In this document: piece after piece, positions 46,089-61,392 of the stretch
How the letters are laid out: each line of letters begins with the position of its first letter
Position numbering within the stretch: position 1 is the stretch's first letter
Virus record (IMG/VR): IMGVR_UViG_3300045988_086557
DNA length: 64,000 nucleotides
Reading direction: 5' to 3' (one strand)
Source of the DNA: a virus
Program-made: the position numbers and the translations under genes
Notes under the pieces: generated by a model
Database searches by the model: none
What the model saw: the letters and a program-made list of their open reading frames with translations, nothing else
What the model was told of the DNA's origin: nothing

Positions 46089-46421
46089 ATGTTCTTTGAC
46101 GAACCATATTTAGATTTACCGGAAAAAGCATAGTATTATTTTAATATCTTAATAATCAGTATTGCTATATCTCCATAGTATGCTTAGGAAATCTTCCAAA
46201 ATAAAGCAATAAGTTTATGGGATATTTAGGGAGTTAATGATCCTAGACCTATTGCTATTCATATATATACTTCTTACCATATTAATAAAGATTTTGACTA
46301 TGAAGTATAGTGTATTCCTCACTAGGTATTAGAAGTTAATGAAAATGAAATATCTTTCTATGAAATGATTGATTACGATACTAGTGACCCTTGGAGGCTT
46401 GATCCAGATGCAATAGATTAA
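46089..46421 (+). CDS. hypothetical protein (about 110 aa, 7 in-frame TAG)
   Basis: ATG after GGAGATT; continuous only through TAG. Confidence 0.3.
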
Positions 46422-47193
46422 TATAAAAGAATATTTTCAACAATAGGTAAACAAATTGCGGGAGATTAGTGGTAATGTTCCATCACTCATGATTATCGAC
46501 GCAACAGCCTAGGATCTCGCGAATCAAATTTATATTCGTAATAAAATAAAAGACTTTAATGCTCTTGGTTGGGAAGCAGAAGTGTTTAGAGCGAATAGTT
46601 CAGTAGAGTTAAGATTACTCTTAGGCCATGCAAAAGACTGGGATGCGGTAATAGTTCAAATGCCAGTAGCAAATGGAATTGATTTCAATTATAGTCAAAT
46701 ACCTATCTCTAAAGATGCGGATGGTTTAAATCCTATGAGCAATATTACTCCAGCAACAGTAAGAGGAATTATAGACTATTTGGATGAATGTGGTTTTAAC
46801 TACGAAGGTAAATCTGCTGTTGTTTTGGGAAGAAGCGATATTGTAGGAAAGCCAATGGCTAAAGCTCTACTGGATAGAAATATGACCGTATCAGTATGTC
46901 ATAGCAAAACAGATATAAATACAAAACTCTATTTAACAAGGCAAGCAGATTTAATTGTCTCTGCGGTAGGAAAATTTAGCTTAACAAGAGAAGCCTGTCC
47001 TAACGCTATTGTTATAGATGTTGGTATTCGCAGAAATGAAGCAGGAATTATTCTTGGTGATTTTGTAGAAATTGATGAAATCGCAAAAAGAAATAATGTA
47101 TGGTCAACTCCTGTCCTCGGAGGAGTAGGTCTATTAACAAGATTGGGGTTGATGAAAAATTGTTTATAGTTAGCGAAACAGGCGCAAAGATAA
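46408..47193 (+). CDS. folD: bifunctional methylene-THF dehydrogenase/cyclohydrolase FolD (about 261 aa); N-terminal 58 codons contain 4 in-frame TAG, C-terminal 200 codons none
   Basis: 'DLANQIYIRNKIK' (cf. 'DPASQVYVRNK'), 'DAVIVQMPVANGID', 'KDADGLNP', 'AVVLGRSDIVGKPMAKALL', 'TVSVCHSKT', 'IVIDVGI', 'STPVLGGVGLLT'. The track ORF starts internally at GTG. Confidence 0.85.
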
Positions 47194-47546
47194 TGAAATT
47201 TTCGGGAGATTTTGACAAATATGCTGAAGAAGTTCTTCATATTAACAATCCCTTTCGAAAATTTTATCATACACAAAGTCCTTCAGTATTTAAAACTAAC
47301 ACCGATGGTATCATAACAATAGATATGGAAGAATCTCGAAAAATATATGAAGAAACAAAAGTAAATAGAGAAGAATGGATTAAATTAAGAGATAGATATG
47401 TCGCAGAAAGAATACTGCGGGAACTTGGATATGAAGTTCTATTAACCTCGTCTTATTTTGAATACTATCCTGATGCTATTCCTTGTGAAGGAGCGTCAGG
47501 GCAATGCACAATAGACTGTAGAATGAATGGGTGTAAATATGAGTAA
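47193..47546 (+). CDS. hypothetical protein (117 aa)
   Basis: ATG overlaps folD stop (TAATG); Cys-rich C-terminus. Confidence 0.4.
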   Translation: MKFSGDFDKYAEEVLHINNPFRKFYHTQSPSVFKTNTDGIITIDMEESRKIYEETKVNREEWIKLRDRYVAERILRELGYEVLLTSSYFEYYPDAIPCEGASGQCTIDCRMNGCKYE

Positions 47547-47726
47547 AATGTGTCCTTGTATTGATTATTGTTATAATAGATTCGGTCGGTAGTACACACC
47601 AGACTGCGACAATACTTGCGATTATGCAATTAAAGTTAAAGAAAATAAAATTCTTAAAGAATATTTAAAGAGATTGGCGGCGGAAACAAATAGTTTACAC
47701 ACTTTATTTGAAGATTGGGATAATTA
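47539..47726 (+). CDS. small Cys-rich protein (62 aa) with one in-frame TAG
   Basis: 'MSKMCPCIDYCYNRFGR.YTPDCDNTCDY'. Confidence 0.35.
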
Positions 47727-47771
47727 AATTATCCACTTCTGCCCAACCGCACGGAAGAAAGGAAACTGCAA

Positions 47772-48539
47772 ATGAGACGAGAAGAGCTCAAACAATACGC
47801 GCAATCGCATTACGCAGACATTAAAGTGAGACTCAAGGAAGATACAGATCGCGCAATTATAAACTCTGAAATTTTTGGCCCCAATCTTCCTTTTCCGCAA
47901 AAACCGCGAGAAACCTACCATAATACCTTTTATCTTAAAGATCAAGATAGCGTATCCTGTCTATTCAGTTTAACCGATCGGAGCAAGACTGCGATCTTAA
48001 ATTATGCAAGCTATAAACATCCAGGTGGTTACTTCCTTGGAGGCAGCTCTGCACAAGAAGAGGCATTGTGTCACGAAAGCAACCTTTATCCTATTCTTCT
48101 TGCTTTTGATGATACTTATTACGCATGGAATAGACAGAGACTAAATCGAGCCCTATATCTTGATAGAGCTATCTATACTCCTGATGTAGTCTTTGAAAAA
48201 GACAATGGTAGAAAATTAGCTGATGTAATTACTTGTGCTTCTCCTAATTATAGAACAGCACATACTTATCAGCAAGTTCCTCTTTCTCTAAACAATAGGA
48301 TAATGGAAGAGAGAATTAATTTTATGTATCGGATTGCCGAGGCTAAGGGAGTGGAAAATTTAATCGCGGGAGCCTGGGGCTGTGGTGTTTTTATGCAAGA
48401 TCCATCAACGGTCGCCACCTTGCTCGTAAACGCAGCCCGCAATTATAATATTCCAAATATCTATTTTGCGATTCCAAACCGCAATTCCCGCAATTTTAGA
48501 ATTTTCTTGGAGGTTTTGGAAAAATGTTCAAGCAATTAA
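47772..48539 (+). CDS. macro-domain / bacterial-type PARG-like (TIGR02452/DUF2263-like) ADP-ribose-processing enzyme, 255 aa
   Basis: 'LNYASYKHPGGYFLGGSSAQEEALCHESNLY' and 'GAWGCGVFMQDP' match family signature blocks. Confidence 0.6.
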   Translation: MRREELKQYAQSHYADIKVRLKEDTDRAIINSEIFGPNLPFPQKPRETYHNTFYLKDQDSVSCLFSLTDRSKTAILNYASYKHPGGYFLGGSSAQEEALCHESNLYPILLAFDDTYYAWNRQRLNRALYLDRAIYTPDVVFEKDNGRKLADVITCASPNYRTAHTYQQVPLSLNNRIMEERINFMYRIAEAKGVENLIAGAWGCGVFMQDPSTVATLLVNAARNYNIPNIYFAIPNRNSRNFRIFLEVLEKCSSN

Positions 48540-48961
48540 TTATTGCGAGACGAGACTTAAATATGTCTCCAGGGAAACTTGCCGCACAAGTTTCCCATGC
48601 TTCTATTGCTTTTCTTTTGGAAAAGTTATATTGGGGAAGTAAAGAAGTTGTTAAAGAAAGAGACGGTCTTATGTATCATATAGGAATAAGCCTCGATAGA
48701 GACTTATTCCATAATTGGATAGCGGAAGCGGAGACCAAAGTAGTTTGTAGAGCGAAGAATAAGAATGATTTGTTAAAGGCTGTTAAGATAGCAGAAGAAT
48801 TAGGATGGGAAGAGAATAAGGATTATTGGCTTATCTATGATGCTTGTAGAACAGAGTTAGAACGCGAAGGCCCGGAAGGGACTTTGACGTGTATTGGATT
48901 TAGGCCAATGGAGGCGGAAGAAATTGACAAAATTGGGAAGAAGTATCAGCTTTATAATTAA
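48524..48961 (+). CDS. peptidyl-tRNA hydrolase, PTH2 family (145 aa); overlaps upstream gene by 16 nt
   Basis: 'IIARRDLNMSPGKLAAQVSHASIAF', 'KVVCRAKN', 'YWLIYDACRTELEREGPEGTLTCIGFRP'. Confidence 0.7.
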   Translation: MFKQLIIARRDLNMSPGKLAAQVSHASIAFLLEKLYWGSKEVVKERDGLMYHIGISLDRDLFHNWIAEAETKVVCRAKNKNDLLKAVKIAEELGWEENKDYWLIYDACRTELEREGPEGTLTCIGFRPMEAEEIDKIGKKYQLYN

Positions 48962-49166
48962 TATAGTTTTGATTTTACTATTGTTGACTGCTTGCGTGGA
49001 GGAGAACAATCGTTATCCAAGGCTAGAGTATATTCCTACAATGTGGAGATCTGATGCGATTAATATTAAATTAGAAGATGGATATATCTTAAAAGGATAT
49101 GAAACGATAGAAACTGAGGATGGATATAATTTGATTTTTAGTTTTGAGGCAACCGACGATGGATAA
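48894..49166 (+). CDS. small predicted lipoprotein (start uncertain, possibly internal near 48960)
   Basis: signal/lipobox-like 'IVLILLLLTAC'. Confidence 0.3.
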   Translation: MDLGQWRRKKLTKLGRSISFIINIVLILLLLTACVEENNRYPRLEYIPTMWRSDAINIKLEDGYILKGYETIETEDGYNLIFSFEATDDG

Positions 49167-49287
49167 AGTATTAGTATGGTTTGACGGTAAGCATTATTAT
49201 AATATATGCGCAGTCTGTGGAGAATTATATCCAATTTACAAAGTAGAAGATCATATTATATATAATTTAAAGAAGAAGTGTAAATGC

Positions 49288-49320
49288 GGAGAGAAGAAGT
49301 GAGTTCTTCTCTCTTTTTCG
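49288..49320 (+). terminator. intrinsic terminator
   Basis: 'GAGAAGAAgtgagTTCTTCTC' + TCTTTTT. Confidence 0.5.
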
Positions 49321-49516
49321 TTATTGAGATTGAAAAGTTGATTTAGATTTTGAAATGGCGTGGCAGAACGATTTCACCAAAAAATTTCCAGTTTTTCCCA
49401 AAATACACGCCCCTCTTTCACATGGTAAAGTATTGAAGTGTAGTTGGCCTCTTTCGCTCGCTAAAGTACGAAAGCAAGAAAGCACGCCCCTAAAGGAATA
49501 CGCGCGCGTAAAGGGT

Positions 49517-49533
49517 TTGTGCAAACTGCACAA
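49517..49533. promoter_or_regulatory. perfect palindromic operator 'TTGTGCAaacTGCACAA' in an ORF-free GC-richer 220-bp region
   Basis: same TTGTGCAA half-site recurs in inverted pairs before 5 other early promoters. Confidence 0.5.
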
Positions 49534-49587
49534 CAAGATGTTATTTATTTTGTGCAAAAGAGAGAGAAAGAAATTTCAAAAAAACTA

Positions 49588-49712
49588 TTGACAAGTGAGC
49601 GTTTTGGTGGTAAACTGGACTTGTCCAGTAGGACAGAGACAAAAGCACAGCACTTTGAAAATTAAAAAATTTCAAAAAAGGTATTGACAAACTGCTAAAG
49701 GTTTGATACAAT
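49588..49712 (+). promoter_or_regulatory. two tandem consensus promoters (TTGACA-N17-TAAACT; TTGACA-N17-TACAAT)
   Basis: hexamers with TGn extended -10; the segment between them resembles the one in the 57.4-57.6 kb promoter array. Confidence 0.55.
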
Positions 49713-49765
49713 ACAGACAGAACAAAAGAGAATCACACCACAAAAAGAAAGGGAGTCAAAAGAGT

Positions 49766-50140
49766 ATGAAAAAGATTGATTTTACCAATGAAGATCGAGC
49801 CATTATTATGGAGTATATGGCGGCTAAGATGGCTAAGTCTGCGGCGGAGGCGGCGGAGAAAGCAGCTAAGGCTAAGGCTAAAGAGCTATTCTCCAGATTA
49901 GGTAAGGCTTTTAAGGCTACGGACAAAACAAGTTATCTATATGGCACGGTACAAATGCAGGGTAAGGCGAAAGCGGTGGTATATAAAGAAACTACCGCAA
50001 AAGGAACGGTTGACTGGAAAGCCTATGCTATGGCATTAGGTGGAACGGAAGCCGAAGCAGAGCAATTCCGCAGACCTTCCGATATTCGTACCTCTTTTGA
50101 TTGGGCGACAAAGACCCAAGAAGAAGAAATTAGAGGATAA
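49766..50140 (+). CDS. hypothetical Ala/Lys-rich protein (124 aa)
   Basis: AAAGGGAG RBS; ends TAA; followed by 14-bp perfect hairpin 50150..50185. Confidence 0.45.
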   Translation: MKKIDFTNEDRAIIMEYMAAKMAKSAAEAAEKAAKAKAKELFSRLGKAFKATDKTSYLYGTVQMQGKAKAVVYKETTAKGTVDWKAYAMALGGTEAEAEQFRRPSDIRTSFDWATKTQEEEIRG

Positions 50141-50407
50141 CAGTTTATAAACCCTGCCTTGCAAAACACAAGGCAAGGCAGGGTTATAATAATTAAAAGA
50201 AAGGGGTATACTATATGTATCAATTACAGGTTTTAGCCAATGAGAAAATGCGCTATTATGAACCATCCACCCTTTCAATGGCAAGATGGAAAGCCAGTCA
50301 CGAGATAGTCAATCCCAATCATTGGATTGTAGATTTATCCAGTGGAGAAATCGTAGATTAAAAAGAAGCTGACCTAACGGCTATACGGGGAGAAAGGATA
50401 AAAGACT

Positions 50408-50710
50408 ATGAACAATTATATTAAGTGGTTCGTTGGGCCTACTTTTAGAAAGCATGAATTTATTAAACTTTTGCGGTATAAGATGAATGTGCGTTCCGCA
50501 GAGGTAGAGGACGGCATCATCTTAGACCTGGATGCTTTTAATGCCATGCGAGTGGCCTATATGCCACACTGGGCTTATATCAATAGAAAGTTTATCAATA
50601 GCAATCTGCATACCAGAATTGCAAGCGAAGATGAATATAAGATTGCTATGGTTGGAGATACAATCGGTACTGAATGGGTTAAAGAACAGGAGGCAAAGAA
50701 ATGGAAATGA
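50408..50710 (+). CDS. hypothetical protein (100 aa)
   Basis: track ORF; ends TGA overlapping next ATG (ATGA). Confidence 0.45.
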   Translation: MNNYIKWFVGPTFRKHEFIKLLRYKMNVRSAEVEDGIILDLDAFNAMRVAYMPHWAYINRKFINSNLHTRIASEDEYKIAMVGDTIGTEWVKEQEAKKWK

Positions 50711-50853
50711 GAATTATTAAGCGGATAGGAGGCGGCATTTGTGCCGCTCTCCTACTCTGGACAGTTCTTAGTTGGGCTGATATAGTGGCGGATAACTGTG
50801 AGCCAAACCCACAGCACAGCGAATATAATATGTTCGTTCTCATGACTAAATAA
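50707..50853 (+). CDS. small membrane peptide (48 aa), translationally coupled
   Basis: 'GGGICAALLLWTVLSWA' hydrophobic core. Confidence 0.35.
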   Translation: MRIIKRIGGGICAALLLWTVLSWADIVADNCEPNPQHSEYNMFVLMTK

Positions 50854-50865
50854 TAGGAGGAAAAA

Positions 50866-51099
50866 ATGTATAGAGGGACTTATATCGACGCCATGGGCCG
50901 CAAGCGCAGAGAGATGGGATATTTCAGTCTTAATAAGCCCACTCTGAATAAACTCCATATACCAGTAATTGTCCAAGCGAGAGATAAGACAAGTGCGGCG
51001 AATAAAATCAATAGGAAATATAAATTGCGTATAAGTCCCAGCAATCTGCGGGAGGTGCCGATGGGCACGGGCTATCTCATGGAAACCATGGAGCTGTAA
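50866..51099 (+). CDS. hypothetical basic protein (77 aa)
   Basis: GGAGG RBS; track ORF. Confidence 0.4.
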   Translation: MYRGTYIDAMGRKRREMGYFSLNKPTLNKLHIPVIVQARDKTSAANKINRKYKLRISPSNLREVPMGTGYLMETMEL

Positions 51100-51112
51100 A
51101 GGAATAATACTT

Positions 51113-51216
51113 GACTGGCAATCTACACAAAGATTGCCAGTCATTTTTATGCACTTTTCCATATTGACTTTTCGCCGGGCCGCCAGCGTGCGCCGCGGCC
51201 CGAATTTTTATTTATT
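51113..51216 (+). terminator. cassette boundary module A: intrinsic terminator + GC-rich 'CGGGCCGc..gCGGCCCG' hairpin/T-tract
   Basis: 'GACTGGCAATC..GATTGCCAGTC'+ATTTTTAT; then 'CGCCGGGCCGCCAGCGTGCGCCGCGGCCCG'+AATTTTTATTT. Confidence 0.65.
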
Positions 51217-51246
51217 CGGCAATTTCAACAATTATATGACCGAAAG

Positions 51247-51313
51247 TTTGTGCAATTCGACGAAAGTTTTTCTCCCGAAATTACTTGACATTCCTTTTCC
51301 CATGTGTTATTAT
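51247..51313 (+). promoter_or_regulatory. module A operator half-site TTGTGCAAT + promoter TTGACA-N17-TATTAT (TGT extended)
   Basis: read directly. Confidence 0.6.
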
Positions 51314-51366
51314 ATACTTGTCCAAAGGGACAGGTCACAAAAAGAATTTGAAAGGAAGTAAAAAAA

Positions 51367-51606
51367 ATGACTTTAGATATGGTTGCTTGGTTACTTTCTC
51401 CGCTTGCAGAAGATACTATGTTCTTTGACGGGGAGGGATTCGAAATTATCAATAAGAATACCCAAGCTCATTACCATGAATTACCTGATGGTAGAATAAC
51501 TCTGGGAGGAGACGTAATCGAGGTATCTAAGGAATGGGTTCTGGGACTTCAGGTAACCGGCATTGAGGCAAGAGATAACAATTTAATCATTTATGTAGAT
51601 GGTTAA
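51367..51606 (+). CDS. hypothetical protein (79 aa)
   Basis: GAAAGGAAG RBS; track ORF. Confidence 0.45.
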   Translation: MTLDMVAWLLSPLAEDTMFFDGEGFEIINKNTQAHYHELPDGRITLGGDVIEVSKEWVLGLQVTGIEARDNNLIIYVDG

Positions 51607-51668
51607 GAAAACTTGCGGGAGTGGAGGCCACAAACCTCTACTCCCCACGATAAAAAGGAGGAATAAAT

Positions 51669-51884
51669 ATGATTGCTGTTATTAAATTTGAAAGTGCAGA
51701 AAAGTCTGTGGAGTTTGGAAACACAATTTGTAATATGGCTGGCTGGTGTTTGGGTCATCCTCTCAATTCCAATGTTACCGGCTGTGTTTGTACACTTGAT
51801 TTTAATACCGGCGACAAGCAAGATAGAGCCTTATATAATTATCTGCTAAAAATTGGAGCTTTCGAGGAGGTGGAACTAAAGTGA
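51669..51884 (+). CDS. hypothetical Cys-containing protein (71 aa)
   Basis: AAAGGAGG RBS; track ORF. Confidence 0.45.
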   Translation: MIAVIKFESAEKSVEFGNTICNMAGWCLGHPLNSNVTGCVCTLDFNTGDKQDRALYNYLLKIGAFEEVELK

Positions 51885-52085
51885 GTATTGAGCGTTTACC
51901 GCATACATATCCTATCGGTTCCACTGTTTGGACAAATAAGGGATATGGCACAGTTCTACTTCACATTGGTAAATACCATCTGGTTTGGCTACAGAGATTA
52001 GGGCTGGCGTAATGCCGGCCCTATTGATTTTTTCAAAAAAATATATTATAATAATTATAGAAAAATAAAGAAAGGAGTTTTTCTA

Positions 52086-52202: not shown

Positions 52203-52294
52203 ATGTTCCTTCCGATTGTTCTAAATCGGCGATTCCCGTGATGGAGTCGTTTTTCGCACGAGCCTAGGTCACTAGAATTTATTTATCAAAATGC

Positions 52295-54971: not shown

Positions 54972-54977
54972 TATACA

Positions 54978-55439: not shown

Positions 55440-55441
55440 AT

Positions 55442-55466
55442 GGGGCGGGGTGAAAATCCCCGCCCC
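55442..55466. repeat. hairpin 'GGGGCGGGGtgaaaatCCCCGCCCC', copy 1 of 2 (second at 58085..58107)
   Basis: identical 23-nt core at both sites, each immediately after a gene stop. Confidence 0.5.
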
Positions 55467-55488
55467 ACAAAGAAAGGGAGTTTTGTCA

Positions 55489-55683
55489 ATGCAAATTAAG
55501 AAAGTTAATAGGCTCATTTTTGATTCAACGGAAAAACAAACATTGAGAAATGCTTCAATTCTCATAAGCCAGATTAGCCGGAGCATGGAAGAGAATGAAA
55601 TTGATGATGATTTTCCTGTCTCTCTTGATGATCTGGTATATGGGATAGATGAACTAATCAATAGGGAATATATTGGATATTAA
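55489..55683 (+). CDS. hypothetical acidic protein (64 aa)
   Basis: AAAGGGAG RBS. Confidence 0.4.
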   Translation: MQIKKVNRLIFDSTEKQTLRNASILISQISRSMEENEIDDDFPVSLDDLVYGIDELINREYIGY

Positions 55684-55688
55684 AAATA

Positions 55689-55773
55689 CCCCTCTCATTA
55701 TTGAGAGGGGTATTTTTTTATTGTCGTTTGGGCGGCCCGCGCTTGGGCGGTGCGGGCCGAATTTTTTTCTTTG
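55689..55773 (+). terminator. cassette boundary module D: intrinsic terminator + GC-rich hairpin/T-tract
   Basis: 'CCCCTCTCattattGAGAGGGG'+TATTTTTTTA; 'GGCGGCCCGCGCTTGGGCGGTGCGGGCCG'+AATTTTTTTCTTT. Confidence 0.65.
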
Positions 55774-55778
55774 TAGAT

Positions 55779-55849
55779 GTTGCACAATTTTGGCGGCGAA
55801 AAGTTGTGCAATTTGCCATCTTGCAATTCTCCCAAAAGTATGGTATTAT
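55779..55849 (+). promoter_or_regulatory. module D inverted-repeat operator TTGCACAA-N19-TTGTGCAA + promoter TTGCAA-N17-TATTAT
   Basis: read directly. Confidence 0.6.
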
Positions 55850-55980
55850 TATCATGTCAGGAGGGAGAGGCCAAGAAATCAAGAGGTCGCGAACTCTTAG
55901 AAAGTAAAGGAAGCAAAGTATACGGCTAAATTTCAATTAGCTACTGAAAGGATTAAGCCAAAAAAACTTTCCTTTTCCTC
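55850..55980 (+). ncRNA. candidate small non-coding transcript (about 130 nt) between the module D promoter and a second promoter
   Basis: consensus promoter upstream, no ORF longer than 17 codons, no RBS; second promoter TTGACA-N17-TATAAT at 55981..56009 serves the exonuclease gene. Confidence 0.25.
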
Positions 55981-56043
55981 TTGACACCAAGCCTTAAATG
56001 TGCTATAATAATACCATCAAGAGAAGAAAGGACTTGATAGATT

Positions 56044-56868
56044 ATGATTGATAAGCGCAGACATTATGTGCTGGTGGTTGACACTGAAACCGCCAACACA
56101 CTAACCGAAACCGTTCCCGCTGAAATCGGAGAGGATGGGGAGATTATTACTCCTGAGCGTGTCCGCATGGATATGTCAAATGTACTGGTATATGACTGCG
56201 GTTGGGCTGTAGTAGATACCAAGGGCAATATTTACGAAACTGCAAGTTTTGTAAATCGGGACATTTTCAATGACGAGCGAGACTTAATGCGGACGGCCTA
56301 TTATAATTGGAAAATCCCCCGCTATGTTGAGGAATTGCGGGCCGGCACTCGCAAGATGGCTACTACTTATGAAATCCGTCAGGCTATGCTTGATACTATC
56401 GAGCGATACGGAATTAAGGAAGTGGCTGCTTATAATGCCCGGTTTGACGATAACGCTCTGCGGGTCACTCAACGATGGGTCACTTGCTCTAAGTTTCGCT
56501 ACTGGTTCCCGTTTGACAGTGTGGAAATTTGGGATATTATGAAGATGACACAAGATGTTATCTGCAATATGCCCACTTATAAGAAATTCTGTCAGGAAAA
56601 TGGATATATCCAAGCCAATGGCGTTCCCCGTAAGACTGCGGAAATCGTGTGGCGGTTTATCTCTGGAAATACCGATTTTGAGGAAAGTCATACGGGGCTT
56701 GAAGATGTTCTCATTGAGGCGGAAATCATGTGGTACTGTATGCGCCAACATAAGCCCATGAGAAAGGCCCTGTATGAGAATAGGAAGGAATTTCCTCCTA
56801 TGACAGACTTTCAGCGTCAGCTTTCCGCAAGTATGCGGAATGTACCTACTATTCGAGTCGGGGCTTAA
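56044..56868 (+). CDS. DnaQ-like DEDDh 3'-5' exonuclease (274 aa)
   Basis: Exo I 'VVDTETA', Exo II 'AAYNARFDDNAL', Exo III 'SHTGLEDVLIEAEI'. Confidence 0.65.
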   Translation: MIDKRRHYVLVVDTETANTLTETVPAEIGEDGEIITPERVRMDMSNVLVYDCGWAVVDTKGNIYETASFVNRDIFNDERDLMRTAYYNWKIPRYVEELRAGTRKMATTYEIRQAMLDTIERYGIKEVAAYNARFDDNALRVTQRWVTCSKFRYWFPFDSVEIWDIMKMTQDVICNMPTYKKFCQENGYIQANGVPRKTAEIVWRFISGNTDFEESHTGLEDVLIEAEIMWYCMRQHKPMRKALYENRKEFPPMTDFQRQLSASMRNVPTIRVGA

Positions 56869-56911
56869 CGCCCCGCTCCATAAAAAATATCTGAAAAGTA
56901 TGTAAAAAACC

Positions 56912-56940
56912 TTGACAGCTTCACCGAATTGTGGTATAAT
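56912..56940 (+). promoter_or_regulatory. consensus promoter TTGACA-N17-TATAAT (TGg extended)
   Basis: read directly. Confidence 0.6.
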
Positions 56941-56987
56941 TTAATCATCAAGAGGGAATAACCCTCATAAAAGAAAGGGAGTTTTGT

Positions 56988-57138
56988 TATGATGAATTTC
57001 TATTTTAAGACTGCGGCAGGCCATGTGTTTGCGGGTGTCGGCAAGGATGTTGACCGTGCCCGTTCTGATGCTAAGCGCAAGGCCGGTTCTCTTTGGTCGC
57101 CTTCGGCCAAGTGCTTCAAAATCGGGAACGCTATTTAA
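56988..57138 (+). CDS. small basic protein (50 aa)
   Basis: AAAGGGAG RBS. Confidence 0.4.
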
Positions 57139-57153
57139 GACGTTTCCGACTAA

Positions 57154-57232
57154 AAGAGGGGTTTTACCCCTCTTTTTTTTATACAAAATTGAGCGGGTCG
57201 CGCAGGAGCGGCGCGACCCGAGTTTTTCTTTG
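57154..57232 (+). terminator. cassette boundary module E: intrinsic terminator + GC-rich hairpin/T-tract
   Basis: 'AGAGGGGttttaCCCCTCT'+TTTTTTTTA; 'CGGGTCGCGCAGGAGCGGCGCGACCCG'+AGTTTTTCTTT. Confidence 0.65.
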
Positions 57233-57236
57233 TAAA

Positions 57237-57624
57237 TGTTGCACAAAAATTTCAACCCCGTTTTGTGTAAAATTCTGCACAAAAACTTTCTCCCAAAATT
57301 CCGATTTTTGTGCAATTTGACGCTTGCAATCTGCTTTTGCTTGTGGTAAAATACATTCAGAAAGTGAGAGAGACGAACGGCAGACAGCGACAGCGAATTT
57401 CTCAAAAATCTTTCAAGAATCTCTTGACAAGCCTTTGAAGATGTGCTATAATAAGTACAGAAAACAAGGCAATGCACCTTGAAAATTAAATAAAAAGGGC
57501 TTGACAAACTTTCCAAAGTGTGTTACACTATAAGGGAGGTTGAGAGGGCAAACAAGTAAAGAGCAAAAGTTCTTGAAAAAAGTTTGAAAAACCTCTTGAC
57601 AAGTACCAAATAGTGTGGTACAAT
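57237..57624 (+). promoter_or_regulatory. module E: operator pairs (TTGCACAA...TTGTGTAA, TCTGCACAA...TTGTGCAAT) followed by four tandem consensus promoters (-35 at 57324, 57425, 57501, 57596)
   Basis: four TTG(A/C)CA-N17-TAnAnT hexamer pairs, each with TGn extended -10, within 300 bp upstream of the gene at 57673. Confidence 0.6.
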
Positions 57625-57672
57625 ATAATCAAAGGACAAGGACAGTCCTAAAAACCAGAAAGGATGTATATT

Positions 57673-58074
57673 ATGGACGAGAAGAAAATCCGCATTACTA
57701 AGGCCCAGCGTTTTGAGGACATTAAGGCCCTCTTGACTGACGGCGAGGTAAAGTATGGCACTACCATCGAGGTGGCTATTACTGTCATTGACCATGAGCT
57801 GGAGCTTCTGCGTAAGAAGAATAGCTCTAGCGGTGACAAGAAGCTGACTCCCACCCAGCAGGAGAACGAGAATTTTAAGGAGCAGATTATGGAGTATCTG
57901 GCTGGTCTGGATGCCGATACCGATGGCGTAACCTGCACGGAAATTTTCAAGGCTATTCCTGATCTGACGGCCTATTCTAACCAGAAGGTCGCCGCCCTTG
58001 TGCGGCAGTTGAAACTCGATGGTCGAGTGGTCTGCACGGAGAAGAAGGGCAAGTCCCTCTTTAAGATGGCGTAA
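57673..58074 (+). CDS. putative winged-helix DNA-binding regulator (133 aa)
   Basis: C-terminal 'GVTCTEIFKAIPDLTAYSNQKVAALVRQLKLDGRVVCTEKKGKSLF' wHTH-like; AAAGGA RBS; heavily promoted. Confidence 0.4.
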   Translation: MDEKKIRITKAQRFEDIKALLTDGEVKYGTTIEVAITVIDHELELLRKKNSSSGDKKLTPTQQENENFKEQIMEYLAGLDADTDGVTCTEIFKAIPDLTAYSNQKVAALVRQLKLDGRVVCTEKKGKSLFKMA

Positions 58075-58212
58075 CCCCGTATAGGGCGGGGTGAAAATCC
58101 CCGCCCTAACTTATAATATGGGGGTGATATTATATCCAGTCGCATTAGTGACGCTGAACGGATTGCAAGGTATAAAGCCCTACAATTAACGCCGGAACAG
58201 GAGGCGGAGTTA

Positions 58213-58530
58213 TTGGCCTATGATAAAGCGGTAGAGGCTGATAAAAAGACTGAATACGATTTACCGCCAGATAAGGCAAAAATTGCCCAAAAGTTTGCCC
58301 ATGCGGGGACGAGAAAGGCTCCAACGGCATATAAGTTTACGCCCCGGCAACGCAAGCCAAACGCCACGAAAGGCGGTATAATCGCGGAATTGGCAGAGTT
58401 TTTGGAAAAAAACAGTCAATTCTCTATCGCTGACTTGTCTATTACTAACAAAGAAAGGCAGATTGCGTTTTCTATTGGTGGGGATAGTTTCGAGTTGACG
58501 CTTGTGCAAAAGCGTAAGCCGAAGAAATAA
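58213..58530 (+). CDS. hypothetical basic protein (about 105 aa; TTG start in track)
   Basis: track ORF; followed by GC hairpin 'GGGGTAGGgtcggCCTACCCC'. Confidence 0.35.
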   Translation: MAYDKAVEADKKTEYDLPPDKAKIAQKFAHAGTRKAPTAYKFTPRQRKPNATKGGIIAELAEFLEKNSQFSIADLSITNKERQIAFSIGGDSFELTLVQKRKPKK

Positions 58531-58586
58531 CGGGGTAGGGTCGGCCTACCCCGGCCCTACCAGAAAAGAGGCAAGTTATAGTTAGT

Positions 58587-58937
58587 TTGCAGACAAGGAG
58601 AAAAGAGTTCCTATATGTCGGACATTATATCGACAAAAAGGGGCGCTATATTCTCAAGATTGGTACGACAAATGACCTTGAACGCAGAGCCGCAGAGCAT
58701 ACGAGAAATTATAAGCGGGCGCCAGATTACACCATGCCGGAAGATGGTTCCTTTATCTATGATTGGCATATCAAACTTTCCAAGTATAATACCCTACGAT
58801 ACGAGGATGTAAACCGGACTTTGTGGCAGAATATGGGAATTGGTCGTTTTATCAGAAATGACCGTTTCTTGTGCGACACTCCCCCGGCCATGGTTACGGT
58901 GGTTATTCGCAAGGCATATCCAATAATTCTCAACTAA
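58587..58937 (+). CDS. GIY-YIG / T5orf172-like nuclease-domain protein (116 aa)
   Basis: 'FLYVGHYIDKKGRYILKIGTTNDLERRAAEH' matches the GIY...YIG..T.N...RR..EH pattern; preferred over overlapping 65-aa ORF 58615..58812. Confidence 0.5.
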   Translation: MQTRRKEFLYVGHYIDKKGRYILKIGTTNDLERRAAEHTRNYKRAPDYTMPEDGSFIYDWHIKLSKYNTLRYEDVNRTLWQNMGIGRFIRNDRFLCDTPPAMVTVVIRKAYPIILN

Positions 58938-58942
58938 AGAAA

Positions 58943-59023
58943 AATCTCCCCTTATGGGGAGATTTTTTTTATGCAAAATTTTGAGCGGACCGCTTGCGTG
59001 CGCCGCGGTCCGAATTTTTCTTC
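58943..59023 (+). terminator. cassette boundary module F: intrinsic terminator + GC-rich hairpin/T-tract
   Basis: 'ATCTCCCCttatGGGGAGAT'+TTTTTTTTAT; 'GCGGACCGCTTGCGTGCGCCGCGGTCCG'+AATTTTTCTTC. Confidence 0.65.
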
Positions 59024-59055
59024 TATTGTCATTTTCAACAATTTTGAATTGAAAA

Positions 59056-59102
59056 TTTGTGCAACTTGACAGCTTGACTTTCTCCCGAAAATGTGGTATC
59101 AT
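59056..59102 (+). promoter_or_regulatory. module F operator half-site TTTGTGCAAC + promoter TTGACT-N17-TATCAT (TGg extended)
   Basis: read directly. Confidence 0.55.
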
Positions 59103-59129
59103 TTAACCATGGAAGGGAGGTAAAAGAAA

Positions 59130-59270
59130 TGATGAATAAACTTAAAAACTCTATCATTCGTTTCTTAATTAAAAGAACTTGCCTTGACATTTCCACTATT
59201 TATTCGGTATTAGGACAAAGTACAGAAAAAGAAATGAAATTTTATATTAAAGATTATTACAGGAGATAAA
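59130..59270 (+). CDS. small protein (46 aa)
   Basis: GGAAGGGAGG RBS. Confidence 0.4.
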
Positions 59271-59274
59271 AGAA

Positions 59275-59727
59275 ATGGAAAGCTTAAAACAATTTCGTGT
59301 TAATTTTCAAGTTACCTTTTGGTGTGAAGGTCGCAAGGGTATCTTCTCTAAGAAGCCTTATAAATTTACGGTATCATTTCGTGATGATATTATGCTTTCT
59401 ACCTTTTTAATCAATGCTCGAACCGAAAAAGAAGCGGTTAAAACTGGAAAAAACTATGTTGAAAATATAGTTCAATGTTGGGTTGAACAGTCAGAAGAAA
59501 ATCAAGCCACCGGCGAATATATGATTTTAACTGGAAATATGGCTGATACAAAAAGATTTGAGTGGTCGCCTAAAATCTACGCCATTACTGGGTATGAAAT
59601 TAAATTTATTTCCTGCGAAATGGTTTGCGACTGGGCAAAAGAAAGGGTTGAGAGAGCGGCAAGAGAACTGACTATGGAGCAATTTAAGCAAGTTTTTAGT
59701 GAAATTCCGGCTGAGATTTTTCATTAA
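59275..59727 (+). CDS. hypothetical protein (150 aa)
   Basis: AGGAGA RBS; track ORF. Confidence 0.5.
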   Translation: MESLKQFRVNFQVTFWCEGRKGIFSKKPYKFTVSFRDDIMLSTFLINARTEKEAVKTGKNYVENIVQCWVEQSEENQATGEYMILTGNMADTKRFEWSPKIYAITGYEIKFISCEMVCDWAKERVERAARELTMEQFKQVFSEIPAEIFH

Positions 59728-59744
59728 AGAAAGGAGATTTTTAG

Positions 59745-59996
59745 ATGGTTGATATTGATTTCGACAAACTGAATGATGAGGAGTTGCAATGGTTGAGTGC
59801 TACCGCCTATAAAGAAGTGGCACTTAGAAAACAAAAAGCGCAAGAGAAAGATTGGAATAGTCTAATCGAAAAGATAGACGAGTATTGTAAAAAGTATGGA
59901 GAAATAACTATCGTTGGATATGGAGATGAATTTGTTTTTGAATCTCCGATACGGTGTAACTGTATAGGAGAAATCAATTTAGAAAACGAGGATTAA
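59745..59996 (+). CDS. hypothetical acidic protein (83 aa)
   Basis: AAAGGAGA RBS; track ORF. Confidence 0.5.
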   Translation: MVDIDFDKLNDEELQWLSATAYKEVALRKQKAQEKDWNSLIEKIDEYCKKYGEITIVGYGDEFVFESPIRCNCIGEINLENED

Positions 59997-60000
59997 GAAA

Positions 60001-60080
60001 AGAGAGGCTTTGGCCTCTCTTTTTATTTTATATTTCCTAAACTCGACGGGCCGGTCGCGGGCGACTCGGCCCGAGTTTTC
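60001..60080 (+). terminator. cassette boundary module G: intrinsic terminator + GC-rich hairpin (no promoter follows)
   Basis: 'AGAGAGGCtttgGCCTCTCT'+TTTTATTTT; 'CGACGGGCCGGTCGCGGGCGACTCGGCCCG'+AGTTTTCC. Confidence 0.6.
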
Positions 60081-61392
60081 CCGATCGGACCATAGCGCAA
60101 AATTTTCATAGCAACTTGGCCATAACGCAACTTCATAGCGATTTTCCCAAAATTCATAACGCCCTCTTCCAAACACCGATCGGCCCTACTTTACTTCTTT
60201 CTTTATCTAGCTCCGATCGGTCCAGCAATATTGGCTCTCTCGTCCAATTTTTTATAATAAAAATCTTAAAATTGTCAAGTATTCACAGTACCAAAACTTT
60301 CTAAAATACAACTAACAATAGCAAAGATATAGCTATGAAAAACAAATACGACCAGAGATTTCTTTCGCGGAACCGATCGGTTTAACACAATTTTATGATA
60401 AAAATAGCTCAAAAATAGAGATTTTAGCTAGATAAACCGATCGGCCCGCGATCTTTTACCTCTTGTTATCGCAAAATATAACAAAAAACCTCTAAAATCT
60501 TGCAAAAATGCGCGTTTTTCTAACAAATTTACTTAAAAATAAGCAAAAAATGCCTCGTTTTTCTCAAAATTTCTTGATATTCACAGAATTAAAACTATTA
60601 AAGATACAGCAAACAATAGCAAAGATGTTGCTAACTATTTGAAAAGAAAAAATCTTTTCCGCGGGATTCCGTTAAAGCGATCTTTTTATCTAGACCCGAT
60701 CGGTTCGACAATATATAAAAAATATAATATAATATATACATAAGATAAAGAAAAGGAGGATTTTAGTTTAAGAAGCATCATAACGCTTTTTCTAACTAAA
60801 AGAACTTATTATGAATAGTTATGAGATTATGATTCGTGATGCAATGCAGAATGGTTCCACTCAGGAGGAGATTGCAAAGGCATTTACCGATGCTATGAAT
60901 AGAATCTCCGAGGCTAATGCCGCAGACCGTGAGCGAGATAATCTTCTGGATGAGATTGAATCTACTTTTTATGGCAATGTTGATGATTTGTCTCTCACTG
61001 AGGATGACGTTGGCCGCGTGGCTGCGCTGGTTTATAGCAAGAGCAATCCTAAGTGGACAGCAAATGATATTAAGCAGTTTATGCAAGCTATGACTGTAAC
61101 TGCTAAGACTTCCGCTCGAGTAGTCAATGCAAAGAGTCTTGATGAAGTAATTGACATTGCTGTTGACTCTATTTCTGATGCTCTCGCAGGTAGTATGAAT
61201 AAGGCTAAGACTGATGAGGACAATATCATGGAGTTTTTGAGACATTTGAAGTAAGATAAACAAGAGGAAAAAGATTAAAGGAGAGAAGTATTGTAGCTTC
61301 TCTCCTTTTTTATATATATTATAATCGCGGAAGGCTAGGTTTACGATCGTTGTGACGAGTGTTGTGATGGTTCGTACCTAGACCCGATCGGC
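60051..61392. repeat. ORF-free repeat region: 7 copies of the palindrome CCGATCGG (some extended to AACCGATCGGTT), two about 75-bp direct repeats (60281..60360 and 60583..60660), 'TCATAGC/CATAACGC' short repeats
   Basis: CCGATCGG at about 60063, 60178, 60226, 60376, 60433, 60699 and 61380; it spans the gene 60811..61254. Confidence 0.6.
60811..61254 (+). CDS. hypothetical acidic protein (147 aa)
   Basis: track ORF; followed by terminator 'GGAGAGAAGtattgtaGCTTCTCTCC'+TTTTTTAT at 61276..61312. Confidence 0.5.
   Translation: MNSYEIMIRDAMQNGSTQEEIAKAFTDAMNRISEANAADRERDNLLDEIESTFYGNVDDLSLTEDDVGRVAALVYSKSNPKWTANDIKQFMQAMTVTAKTSARVVNAKSLDEVIDIAVDSISDALAGSMNKAKTDEDNIMEFLRHLK

Follow-up and report, generated by a model that had tools for sequence, protein, structure and literature searches.

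A partly recoded gut phage and the features of its early arm

The window (the whole 64,000-nucleotide stretch of viral DNA analyzed here) carries a minus-strand late arm and a plus-strand arm of small genes, which opens with a 110-codon ORF (orf110) and folD, continues as a block of genes free of TAG codons, and is interrupted by a divergent cluster of minus-strand regulators (Table 1). On sequence grounds, its source is a gut phage of ∼146 kb that uses TAG as a glutamine codon (code 15) and is distantly related to phAss-1. Recoding is borne out by ORF length: with TAG read as sense, stop-to-stop ORFs reach 2914, 1306, and 944 amino acids (aa), and the maximum under the standard code is 465 aa. 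In alignments of homologues, TAG stands opposite Q at 48 of 95 and 25 of 51 distinct sites, and in folD TAG falls at invariant Gln positions of the family alignment. The same arrangement is found on many independent contigs of 113 to 150 kb, so it is not an artefact of assembly. Collection blocks with this lineage number 559 to 1,314, which makes it very common. The phage seems to be of the virulent type, with Clostridia-like gut bacteria as suggested hosts, for which MAG bins give a hint only.

Table 1. Features of the early arm and its borders
Feature	Coordinates	Strand	Remarks
First late-arm gene, 348 aa	44917..46016	−	11 TAG; PHROG label "sigma factor" (phrog_5767, E 1.1e-38)
TTGACA-17-TATTAT (TG) promoter of the 348-aa gene	46016-45988	−	conserved in three clades
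TTGATT-17-TATAAT site	46024-46052	+	ahead of orf110
orf110, 110 codons	46089..46421	+	6 TAG; first gene of plus-strand unit
folD, 261 codons	46408..47193	+	fully recoded; TAG at codons 3, 13, 35, 254
TAG-free ("code-neutral") early block	47193..61254	+	∼27-28 small genes, no TAG as sense or stop
Cys-rich ORF, 62 aa	47539..47727	+	one TAG, codon 18 (47590-47592)
PARG-like gene, microbial type	47772-48539	+	Pfam PF10021, 93.9 bits; TAG-free
PTH2 peptidyl-tRNA hydrolase	48524-48961	+	Pfam PF01981, 80.5 bits; TAG-free
Sigma-70 promoter cluster	49588..57624	+	consensus match; TGn extended −10, A-rich upstream tracts; first hexamers start at 49588, 49684, 51285, 53218, 53537, 54925, 55981, 56912, 57424, 57501, 57596
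∼190-nt cassette, six copies	51150, 52581, 54555, 55707, 57170, 58960 (span 51150..59135)	+	repeat families D1, D3, D6
TAG-permissive island inside early block	52024..52633	+	TAG at differing Gln codons by clade
Promoter-like TTGATT-17-TATAAT	52024-52052	+	start of island
Cys-rich ORF, 38 aa (Cys38)	52086-52202	+	TAG codon 19
AbrB/SpoVT-type swapped-hairpin DNA-binding protein, 77 aa (predicted)	52291..52524	+	TAG (Gln) codon 32, 52384-52386
Island terminators	52566-52588, 52607-52633	+	
SpoVT/AbrB-type regulator, 152 aa	54077..54535	+	Pfam MazE_antitoxin, 33.6 bits; TAG-free
Conserved early gene, 274 aa	56044..56868	+	phrog_20187; TAG-free
Divergent regulator cluster	61606..63133	−	all members with TAG
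127-aa ORF	61606-61989	−	2 TAG
∼8 repeats of ∼30 nt	62005-62341		in regulator cluster
HTH_36-like gene	62334-62723	−	1 TAG
DUF5659-like gene	62698-62919	−	3 TAG
RHH/DUF6290 gene	62935-63072	−	2 TAG
TGGACA-17-TATAAT (TG) promoter	63133-63105	−	of regulator cluster

TAG is absent from the early block as sense and as stop

Minus-strand late genes contain 22.6 in-frame TAG per 1000 codons (279 TAG in 12,353 codons), and 52% of the Gln codons of the TAG-bearing ones are TAG; across homologues, TAG makes up 0.27 to 0.43 of the Gln-type codons of late genes. The early block was curated to 28 genes with 3,123 codons, for which the late rate predicts 70.5 TAG (P(0) = 1e-31). It has none in frame and 92 out of frame (43 + 49), and its genes stop with TAA (24) or TGA (4), which confirms for 47,193 to 61,254 the claim of an earlier reading of this DNA, made from the sequence alone (the sequence-only reading), that the plus-strand genes lack TAG and end in TAA or TGA. 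The block resumes at 63412-63918 and runs on for ∼9 kb past the window end, giving an early arm from 47.19 kb to ∼72.7 kb in window-equivalent coordinates. This extension adds 15 genes with 2,248 codons and no TAG, some of them at a GC content of 0.30 to 0.36; TAG is the stop codon of 0 of the 43 genes.

A gene-by-gene census of 44 loci found no TAG in ∼28,000 codons of 30 early genes from relatives at 70 to 99% identity. Homologues of the PARG-like gene, PTH2, and the 152-aa regulator have none in 2,269, 2,403, and 1,050 codons, respectively, and the 274-aa gene, which served as the anchor for locating the source contigs (113 to 150 kb), is present in 559 collection blocks. Gene set and order are the same in clades down to 60 to 70% protein identity, TAG-free each time, and the partition is present in every relative examined (14 loci compared). 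The lack of TAG in the relatives' early genes argues that the partition is real, ancestral, and selected. Strains differ by indels of small genes.

Promoters of the early arm and the suppressor tRNA

The early arm is built as many short promoter-gene-terminator units. At least 12 near-perfect sigma-70 promoters lie in the block; five of those in the cluster are 12/12 matches with TG, and all 9 plus-strand sites in the 64-kb window that match at ≥11/12 with TG lie inside it. When the copies of the cassette were aligned, each proved to combine a GC-rich hairpin terminator, a TTGCACAA-N16-18-TTGTGCAA inverted repeat, which is a candidate operator, and a promoter. Both the promoters and the Shine-Dalgarno sites of the early genes are very strong. 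The label "early" for this arm follows from promoter consensus and gene content. Host-takeover or early modules of large Firmicute phages, Bacillus phage SPO1 among them, are likewise made of many tiny genes, each with a strong consensus sigma-A promoter, strong ribosome-binding site, and terminator, on one strand adjoining the late arm; the likeness meant here is one of layout, and SPO1, unlike this phage, uses the standard code throughout. Between the 46024 promoter and a terminator at ∼49300, TAG-bearing and TAG-free genes are intermixed in one operon-like unit, so TAG status is specific to the gene and not to the unit.

The suppressor tRNA(CUA) lies outside the window, and its position was inferred from IMG/VR contigs at 98 to 99% identity (L019:20132-20207 and L020:18996-19070). 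It would sit ∼27 kb past the window end and close an array of 29 to 30 tRNAs that starts ∼8.8 kb after the window; its acceptor stem matches that of the phage tRNA-Gln(UUG). A 12/12 TTGACA-17-TATAAT (TGn) promoter (L019:19666-19694) precedes it by ∼440 nt with no terminator between the two, and L020 has the same promoter sequence. An immediate-early suppressor promoter had been named in the sequence-only reading as evidence against a temporal program. The promoter does belong to the class of the early promoters and so, in form, speaks against such a program; any delay would then have to arise as the tRNA builds up and competes with RF1, rather than from the suppressor being transcribed late.

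TAG-bearing regulators in and beside the early arm

The exceptions listed earlier, namely, the AbrB-like gene, two Cys-rich peptides, and the minus-strand RHH/HTH genes at 61606-63072 (1 to 3 TAG each), are real. The genes exempt from the TAG ban also include orf110, folD, and the sigma-labelled first late gene; a sigma fold was not confirmed for this last product on checking. Homologues of orf110 have a TAG fraction of Gln-type codons of 0.62, and those of the minus-strand cluster 0.36 to 0.62. In the 62-aa Cys-rich ORF, the sister clade has TAG or Q at the codon-18 site plus a second TAG.

The nearest known counterparts of the 77-aa protein are the transition-state regulators AbrB, Abh, and SpoVT: its N-terminal ∼50 residues match AbrB in profile (search against the PDB, E 4.6e-5) and in fold (structure model with pLDDT 70; best Foldseek match, the AbrB N domain 1yfb at probability 1.00, then SpoVT), and the phage region has two such genes (77 and 152 aa). 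Unlike those proteins, it has a short C-terminal helix, an in-frame TAG, and sub-gathering Pfam scores (MraZ and MazE_antitoxin, both slightly under the cut-off). This gene acquired TAG in independent events at Gln codons 25 (twice), 32, and 40, and the cotranscribed Cys38 did so at codons 19 and 32; the TAG fractions are 0.18 and 0.29, respectively, and 0.00 for the neighbours. By our estimate, ∼6 Gln-to-TAG events fell in ∼6 Gln codons of these two genes and 0 in ∼84 elsewhere in the early arm, and an even spread would produce this with a probability of (6/90)^6, or ∼1e-7. The two genes form a genuine, family-wide TAG-permissive island.

One interpretation makes the single TAGs of the AbrB-like, Cys-rich, and RHH/HTH genes an adaptive translational timer: the mRNAs would be early, and full-length regulator, made once tRNA(CUA) passes a threshold, would drive the switch from early to middle or late genes, for example by binding the TTGCACAA..TTGTGCAA palindromes. 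The repeated gains in a 77-codon gene and Cys38 next to ∼26 genes that never gain a TAG speak for it, as do the sigma-70-type promoters ahead of TAG-bearing regulators (52024, 63133 [minus], and 46016 [minus]), an apparently bona fide AbrB-type DNA binder by profile and fold, and six candidate operator palindromes adjoining early promoters. However, 5 of the 11 distinct AbrB-like sequences have no TAG (L037, L039/L042, and L032/L034), its position is not conserved, and a TAG fraction no higher than that of late genes fits a simple relaxation of the ban. A cut at residue 24, 31, or 39 would remove half of the ∼50-residue swapped-hairpin domain, so that the product is cut in mid-domain and not, as had been proposed, truncated after its DNA-binding hairpin. 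Truncated products would not fold or function, which leaves an adaptive timer unproven; moreover, the early-type suppressor promoter may keep the delay short, and binding of the protein to the palindromes is hypothetical. The suppressor-dependent timer of the sequence-only reading thus keeps its AbrB/SpoVT-like protein in a TAG-permissive island but lacks a TAG conserved in position and present in all lineages, and we regard it as a tentative possibility.

Demand for efficient, high-level translation could also purge a slow or leaky TAG from strongly expressed genes, early or late. The strong promoters and Shine-Dalgarno sites of the early genes are in keeping with this, as are five TAG-free late genes in the window and, family-wide, a major-capsid-like gene (1 TAG in 3,782 codons) and the adjacent 229-aa gene (0 in 1,773), both of which prefer CAG. 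Maximal expression of all 43 early/middle genes, of every size and function, is hard to credit, however; the TAG-free late genes have a different codon bias (CGT, ATT, GGT; GC3 of 0.25, against 0.41 in early genes), and efficiency alone cannot explain why TAG is also shunned as a stop. As the source of the partition, efficiency seems unlikely to us; it is compatible with a timing model, not exclusive of it. Since the late capsid-like gene and its neighbour are TAG-free, expression level or decoding efficiency also shapes TAG use, and avoidance, judged from codon counts, is not purely temporal.

folD and the start of the TAG-free block

Pfam detects both domains of folD (THF_DHG_CYH, 33.9 bits; THF_DHG_CYH_C, 128 bits, with the alignment reaching residue 259). 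A sharp code boundary or mosaic junction had been placed inside this gene, with 4 TAG in the first 58 codons, none in the next ∼200, and a TAG-free stretch from ∼46.58 kb. The fourth TAG is in fact codon 254 (47167-47169), a sense codon opposite Q, D, or E in homologues that extend beyond it, and 46.58 kb is the GTG of a standard-code ORF (46582-47169) that terminates at this TAG. The TAG-free block therefore begins at 47,193, where the TAA of folD and the ATG of the following gene overlap, and not within folD. By its codons, folD precedes the boundary and belongs with the recoded genes, with no internal switch; its GC3 (0.24) is like that of late genes, and its TAG count is 7 over both halves in a sister clade and 0 to 2 in 70%-identity clades. 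On phage-sized contigs, homologues ranging in identity from 98% to 47% are full length. Comparison of the halves, meant to reveal separate origins, found no mosaic junction: the N half diverges faster than the C half in every pairwise comparison.

A rise in GC, reported earlier, does occur (∼0.30-0.34 to 0.37-0.45; GC3, 0.22 to 0.41). Early-block codons are GC-richer, with fewer of the A-ending codons that the ∼30 phage-encoded tRNAs serve (early versus late shares: ATA, 15% versus 31%; AGA, 33% versus 62%; TTA, 19% versus 52%). Import of the block from the host or from a phage using the standard code, joined in or near folD, would suit this rise (∼0.33 to 0.40-0.45), the small-gene indels, a recombination breakpoint inside the early arm (identity to L004 jumps from ∼80% to 99.6% at ∼54.5 kb), and the weak Pfam score of the folD N domain, but it is very improbable, because the same genes recur TAG-free and in order across clades, no gene retains the TAG stops that such an import should leave, the TAG-free state is not restricted to the GC-rich stretch and reaches low-GC genes at 63 to 72 kb, and folD is late-like in GC3, has TAG at both ends, and is uniformly more diverged in its N half.

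Relation to known recoded phages

The temporal reading had already been set out by Borges et al. (bioRxiv 10.1101/2021.08.26.457843; Nat Microbiol 2022), in whose model standard-code early genes are followed by a switch and by recoded late and lysis genes. As in those phages, TAG occurs in part of the genes, with structural and packaging genes recoded; there is a standard-code-compatible block, an own tRNA(CUA), depletion of TAG as a stop, and presumably a standard-code Firmicute host. Unlike in them, no tRNA synthetase/release-factor "code change module" was found in the ∼110 kb examined, the suppressor ends a 19-kb tRNA array, follows an early-type promoter, and is not adjacent to the lysis cassette, TAG-permissive regulator islands lie within the early arm, and capsid genes are TAG-free. 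Tracing the TAG-free state gene by gene across the family goes beyond that work.

Among described phages the closest is phAss-1 (OQ749652), of the proposed Phassvirus group, which also recodes TAG to Gln and has tRNA-Sup genes (PMC10607447). Shared with it are a human-gut origin, a genome of ∼136 to 150 kb, tRNA-SUP-CTA, ∼30 to 36 tRNAs, TAG in TerL, portal, and tail genes, distant links to Enterococcus EF1-like and SPbeta-like phages, and a major-capsid-like protein (52% identical). Megablast found no nucleotide similarity between the two, which indicates a different genus-level lineage. An early/late code partition is not analysed in the paper on phAss-1.

A probable temporal partition of the code

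We conclude, with a probability of about 0.78, that the locus is the early arm, transcribed by host RNA polymerase, of a TAG-to-Gln phage with its own tRNA(CUA), from which selection keeps TAG out. Consensus promoters, the absence of TAG as sense or stop, and a partition in all relatives uphold the proposal that early genes are readable by a naive host and that TAG-bearing genes depend on the suppressor. Early genes would need correct translation both before and after the suppressor builds up, so that selection would purge TAG in either role. Host-like codons would be retained by selection as well, so that no foreign insertion would be needed to explain the GC rise. Late genes, decoded by the tRNAs of the phage, would drift to AT-rich codons, the change of CAG to TAG (C to T) included.

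Several TAG-permissive genes follow sigma-70-type promoters. Their full-length products would appear only after tRNA(CUA) outcompetes RF1, so in terms of translation these genes would be delayed-early or later. Transcription of the suppressor itself is probably early, from its perfect consensus promoter, in which case tRNA accumulation would set the delay. The single TAG of the AbrB-like gene may be an adaptive timer or may be tolerated because the protein acts after the switch.

The early genes are free of TAG

A curated set of 28 plus-strand genes (47,193-61,254 plus 63412-63918; 3,123 codons) contains no in-frame TAG, while the other two frames of these genes hold 43 and 49. At the late-gene rate, 70.5 TAG codons would be expected (probability of none, ∼1e-31), and no gene of the set uses TAG as its stop (24 TAA and 4 TGA). 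Fifteen further genes past the window are also TAG-free, which brings the total to 43 genes and 5,371 codons; several of the fifteen have a GC content of only 0.30 to 0.36, so the TAG-free state is not a by-product of a GC-rich stretch. The sequence-only reading had reported a TAG-free early region with a rise in GC content, and both observations held, as did the exceptions that it named: an AbrB-like ORF, two Cys-rich ORFs, and minus-strand genes do carry TAG codons (see the table of features).

Recognizable genes of the block encode a microbial PARG-like protein, a PTH2 peptidyl-tRNA hydrolase, two AbrB/SpoVT-type proteins, a conserved 274-aa phage protein, and a T5orf172/GIY-YIG-like protein. 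The PARG-like macrodomain gene overlaps the PTH2-type gene in the first early operon, near folD; PARG-like, PTH2, and folD are an unusual combination in a phage that manipulates how translation terminates. In a sister clade (L004:4609-5061 and its equivalents in L026 to L028), the homologue of the early gene at 49766-50140 has TAG at the position of the window gene's TAA stop and goes on for 26 more codons, possibly representing a TAG stop that is read through after the code switch.

Features of the window and of related contigs (L-numbers) with position, strand, and TAG content
Feature	Position	Strand	TAG
Retroelement target protein, 541 aa (Big_3, DUF6273)	2639-4264	+	7
Reverse transcriptase, 405 aa (RVT_1)	5280-6497	+	3
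Late genes among TAG-rich neighbors	29705-30244, 31812-33203, 36354-36887, 36952-38004, 38024-38713	-	0
12/12 sigma-70 site	30305	-	
First late gene, 348 aa	44917-45963		11
folD, 261 codons	46408-47193		codons 3, 13, 35, 254
62-aa Cys-rich ORF	47539-47727		codon 18
PARG-like and PTH2 genes	47772-48961	+	
Two tandem promoters	49588-49712	+	
Six cassette copies	51150-59135	+	
5' terminator of Cys38/AbrB-like unit	51999-52023		
TTGATT-17-TATAAT site	52024-52052		
38-aa Cys-rich ORF (Cys38)	52086-52202		codon 19
AbrB-like ORF	52291-52524		codon 32
Two 3' terminators of the unit	52566-52633		
Three tandem promoters	57424-57624	+	
Four minus-strand genes	61606-63072	-	1-3 each
∼30-nt repeats	62005-62341		
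TGGACA-17-TATAAT (TG) site	63133-63105		
tRNA(CUA)	L019:20132-20207; L020:18996-19070		
tmRNA	L017:20629-20949; L021:7487-7802; L020:9158-9488		
ROOL RNA	L020:12035-12630		
Twister-P1-like match	L017:16286-16343; L020:6228-6285		
Array homing-endonuclease genes	L019:3518-4135, 8622-9611; L020:250-1197, 9575-9973		present

The late genes read TAG as glutamine

With TAG as a sense codon, the window yields ORFs of 2914, 1306, and 944 aa, compared with a standard-code maximum of 465 aa; reading TGA as sense left the ORF lengths in the window unchanged. When TAG was translated as Gln, the minus-strand genes from 7.6 to 46 kb gave full-length matches to PHROG families (portal, TerL, virion structural, and others), and the late minus-strand genes contain 279 in-frame TAGs in 12,353 codons. 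In diverged homologues, Q was the commonest partner residue at TAG sites (48 of 95 and 25 of 51 distinct sites in the two directions of comparison), followed by E and K, and the conserved Gln sites of folD and of the AbrB-like gene agree with this assignment.

In an exact-protein look-up, the 274-aa gene (56044-56868) occurred in 559 collection blocks; these lie on independent contigs (113 to 150 kb) that share the gene order, most of them 99.5 to 99.9% identical to the window across 45 to 64 kb. The arrangement of the window is thus not an assembly chimera. A megablast search with both arms against 50,697 phage records, including phAss-1, gave no match. Whole ∼148-kb relatives (L045 to L048) are binned in MAGs named Oscillospiraceae, Eubacterium, and Collinsella; we rejected these bins as evidence of the host. 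They likely contain free phage contigs rather than prophages, and they point weakly to a host among the Clostridia.

The TAG-free block begins after folD

A code boundary had been proposed within folD, with all TAG codons in its first 58 codons. The gene does contain three TAGs near its 5' end, but the fourth is codon 254 of 261, and the proposed start of the TAG-free region at 46.58 kb is the GTG of a standard-code ORF (46582-47169) that ends at this fourth TAG. Both FolD domains lie in one continuous protein when TAG is read as Q (residues 5 to 259 of 261; PF00763, 33.9 bits with a cut-off of 32.8; PF02882, 128.1 bits). The TAA stop (47191-47193) shares bases with the following gene's ATG (TAATG), and in 23 related loci and database homologues the position of codon 254 is Q, D, E, A, or T, followed by 3 to 7 more residues. 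The alignment of the C-terminal domain to residue 259, the overlap, and the homologous residues show that codon 254 acts as sense. The TAG-free block therefore begins at the junction between folD and the next gene, and not at a point within folD.

The sister clade with ∼80% identity (L026 to L028 and L004) has seven TAGs in folD, one of them occupying the invariant Gln position of GNQIYI and another falling in the C-terminal half, and clades with ∼70% identity have zero to two; the three TAGs at the 5' end are a lineage-specific accident. A mosaic junction inside folD, with separate origins of the two halves, had been offered as the alternative. The N-terminal half is indeed more diverged than the C-terminal half (0.39 to 0.53 versus 0.68 to 0.79 between clades), but this holds in every pairwise comparison and also for database homologues (77 to 47% identity), which are all full-length and in many cases lie on phage-sized contigs. 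Together with a GC3 of 0.24, which is the late-gene value, this argues against separate origins, and we rejected the junction.

An ancestral code partition, specific to genes

In 14 loci with 70 to 99% folD identity, the late genes upstream contain 4.6 to 18.5 TAGs per 1,000 codons and the plus-strand genes downstream almost none. We then took a census of TAG/(TAG+CAA+CAG) per gene over all distinct homologous sequences of 44 loci. This fraction was 0.27 to 0.43 for portal, TerL, and their neighbors, 0.62 for orf110 (a 110-codon ORF at 46089..46421), 0.18 for folD, 0.50 for the 62-aa Cys-rich ORF, 0.36 to 0.62 for the minus-strand cluster, and 0.00 for 30 early genes (∼28,000 codons). Values above zero also came from Cys38 (0.29), the AbrB-like gene (0.18), and g82 (54723-54971; 0.12). 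We rejected g82 as a TAG-permissive gene: its TAG is one event in one clade, aligned to Trp, eight codons from the end, and is probably a tolerated nonsense change. Across these homologues, the code partition is ancestral and specific to genes.

Codon usage differs along the same line. The late TAG-bearing genes have a GC3 of 0.22, with TAG at 52% of Gln, ATA at 31%, AGA at 62%, and TTA at 52%; in the early genes, GC3 is 0.41 and the respective values are 0, 15, 33, and 19%. Family-wide synteny and the complete absence of TAG stops argue against a recent import of standard-code DNA, although the early arm does show recombination and gene turnover: L004 shares 76 to 87% identity with the window left of a strain breakpoint at ∼54500 and 99.6% right of it, and other strains differ by indels of whole small genes at 52.7 to 54.6, 59.0 to 60.0, and 63.3 to 63.9 kb. 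We infer a single cause behind the GC rise and the lack of TAG. Early genes would have to be translatable by the host apparatus in its unmodified form; late genes would be read with the phage tRNA set and could drift toward AT-rich codons, including from CAG to TAG.

Predicted promoters of the early arm and of the suppressor tRNA

From 49.6 to 57.6 kb, the plus strand has at least eleven sigma-70 sites (10 to 12 of 12 consensus positions); almost all of them have TGn and an A-rich upstream stretch, and five are perfect. All nine plus-strand sites of the window with at least 11/12 and TG fall within these 8 kb. Strong intrinsic terminators set apart the short units, and the block resembles an early arm, its early expression being judged from promoter consensus. 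A cassette of ∼190 nt, present in six copies, combines a GC-rich hairpin terminator, the inverted repeat TTGCACAA-N16-18-TTGTGCAA, and a sigma-70 promoter; that the inverted repeat is the operator of one small regulator is only a guess. Consensus promoters also occur in tandem, at intervals of 77 to 96 nt without an intervening ORF; these may be stacked or may drive small RNAs. A link between a second, AT-rich promoter class (repeat families D7, D10, and D12) and TAG-bearing genes was considered and rejected, the same motif being found 5' of TAG-free genes at 55981, 60705, and 63362.

No tRNA turned up when the window and the first six loci were scanned, and an Rfam search of the window found no family. 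By walking from the window end along near-identical (98 to 99%) IMG/VR contigs, we reached an array of 29 to 30 tRNAs plus a tmRNA, which begins ∼8.8 kb past the window and spans ∼19 kb. Its last member, a tRNA(CUA), lies ∼27 kb past the window on the strand of the early genes. The acceptor stem and G73 of this suppressor match the phage tRNA-Gln(UUG); in the anticodon and T arms it is similar to tRNA-Trp. Descent from either tRNA would be compatible with Gln charging, as amber suppressors derived from tRNA-Trp illustrate, and the suppressor is predicted to be charged with Gln. A 12/12 TTGACA-17-TATAAT site with TGn lies ∼440 nt 5' of the tRNA and is also present in a relative with 82% identity; the interval holds a TAG-free 108-aa ORF, and no terminator-like hairpin was found in it. 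A theta (HDV-like) ribozyme beside the suppressor was rejected, given no Rfam match and an ORF with a Shine-Dalgarno sequence directly 3' of the tRNA.

Other array tRNAs serve precisely the A-ending codons that the late genes favor (Ile-UAU, Arg-UCU, Leu-UAA, Lys-UUU, and others). The tmRNA (Rfam, 72 to 77 bits) has the ARAGORN tag peptide DNDYFENYLAA. A ROOL RNA (RF03087, 350 bits) lies between two tRNA-Gln genes of the 82%-identity relative, and a sub-threshold twister-P1-like match (46 to 52 bits) lies beside tRNA-Ser. Homing-endonuclease genes (GIY-YIG, HNH-like, and LAGLIDADG) scattered in the array carry TAG codons, one of them within an IYIGQT motif; adjoining small ORFs carry none.

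A TAG-permissive unit and other TAG-bearing regulators

Cys38 and the AbrB-like ORF form one unit with its own promoter-like site, bounded by a 5' terminator and two 3' terminators. The 77-aa protein matched AbrB (4.6e-5) and Abh (2.2e-4) in profile searches against the PDB; a Foldseek search with its model (mean pLDDT of only 70) returned the AbrB N-domain first (probability 1.00) and then SpoVT, and the Pfam families MraZ and MazE_antitoxin scored 0.6 to 3 bits under cut-off. By sequence and predicted fold, it is AbrB-like in its N-terminal DNA-binding domain. Its TAG lies at codon 32 in the window clade, at codon 25 in the L026 clade and independently in L029, and at codon 40 in the L030/L036/L044 clade, and is absent from L037, L039/L042, and L032/L034; every one of these sites is Q in the remaining lineages. 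Cys38 has TAG at codon 19 or 32 or none. We estimate ∼six independent Gln-to-TAG events in the ∼six Gln codons of the two genes and none in ∼84 other early Gln codons; under an even spread of the events, such a pattern would have a probability of ∼1e-7, as calculated from the family comparison. Such clustering indicates that the two genes are truly exempt from the TAG ban, and in most lineages full-length AbrB-like and Cys38 proteins would require the suppressor.

The exemption could have been selected as a timer, as the sequence-only reading held for the AbrB-like protein, or merely tolerated since the proteins act after the switch. The presence of TAG, the AbrB likeness, and the recurrent gains stand, but TAG is not kept in all lineages, and it makes up no larger a share of the Gln codons than it does in late genes. 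The further claim of a product truncated after its DNA-binding hairpin fails: a cut at residue 24, 31, or 39 removes strands 3 and 4 of the ∼50-residue swapped-hairpin domain, and the truncated product cannot be a functional DNA-binding hairpin.

The minus-strand cluster encodes RHH/DUF6290, DUF5659-like, and HTH_36-like proteins and a 127-aa ORF, behind a sigma-70-type site. Between the 127-aa ORF and the HTH_36-like gene lie eight or nine partly palindromic copies of a ∼30-nt repeat (TTTCATAGTATTnTCAGAATACCATGAAA), which look like iterons or an operator array and perhaps mark a replication origin. The first late gene, for which 'sigma factor' is a PHROG label only, has a TTGACA-17-TATTAT (TG) site upstream, conserved in three clades. 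At 2639-7595 (+) of the window, a diversity-generating retroelement has TAG codons in both its target and reverse transcriptase genes; in L010, the reverse transcriptase region is disrupted.

Late genes without TAG

The gene for a major-capsid-like protein (350 aa) has 1 TAG in 3,782 codons family-wide, and its 229-aa neighbor has 0 in 1,773; both prefer CAG. Three more late genes of the window also lack TAG, and just upstream of one of them (29705-30244) is a 12/12 sigma-70 site. These genes show that TAG avoidance is not only temporal; TAG seems to have a decoding cost, which abundant proteins avoid. Such a cost is a partial rival to timing and is compatible with it.

Discussion

For recoded phages, a model has been proposed in which early genes are translated in the host code, suppressor tRNAs appear early, and recoded late and lysis genes follow; an ancestral depletion of the recoded stop was noted as well (Borges et al., bioRxiv 10.1101/2021.08.26.457843). 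In later work, what triggers the switch is still described as poorly understood. The standard-code-compatible gene set of that model is present here (43 genes, in a family-wide pattern), and the phage fits it, with the temporal order read from promoter consensus. Of the temporal programme first proposed for this DNA, the TAG-free early arm thus agrees with the published model, and the boundary in folD and its mosaic alternative fall away. The nearest described phage is phAss-1 (OQ749652), a 136-kb human-gut phage that reads TAG as Gln and has 36 tRNAs and three tRNA-SUP-CTA genes (PMC10607447). The major-capsid-like proteins are 52% identical, and there is no megablast match, where more than ∼70 to 80% nucleotide identity and shared synteny with phAss-1 are expected within the genus Phassvirus; the present phage belongs to the wider phAss-1 group, outside the phAss-1 genus. 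It is of a known kind, a TAG-to-Gln phage with the early/late partition of Borges et al., and with it a very common, uncultured lineage from the gut joins the known phages of this type. New are the code-neutral early arm, established gene by gene and family-wide; the predicted early-arm promoter architecture, with a putative early-type promoter for the suppressor; and the TAG-free capsid genes and small TAG-permissive regulator islands with repeated TAG gains.

The code switch might further be wired into the regulatory cascade, with regulators deliberately kept TAG-bearing and the accumulation of one phage tRNA as the clock. The AbrB-like, RHH, and HTH proteins and the first late gene ('sigma factor' by label) would be transcribed from host-type promoters, and accumulating tRNA would convert these early transcripts into proteins that shut early promoters and open late ones. 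We consider this unlikely, at roughly one chance in four; if true, the repeated gain of TAG at differing Gln codons of one tiny gene would be a signature of selection for the gate.

That stop-codon recoding times phage development has so far been inferred from genomes only. The present family corrects an over-reading, in that no code boundary lies within a gene, and is an unusually clean family-wide case in which early genes are code-neutral, with no TAG codon or stop, and late genes drift to TAG. The small set of regulators that depart from their neighbors in TAG status offers concrete, cheap targets for the question of timing by recoding.
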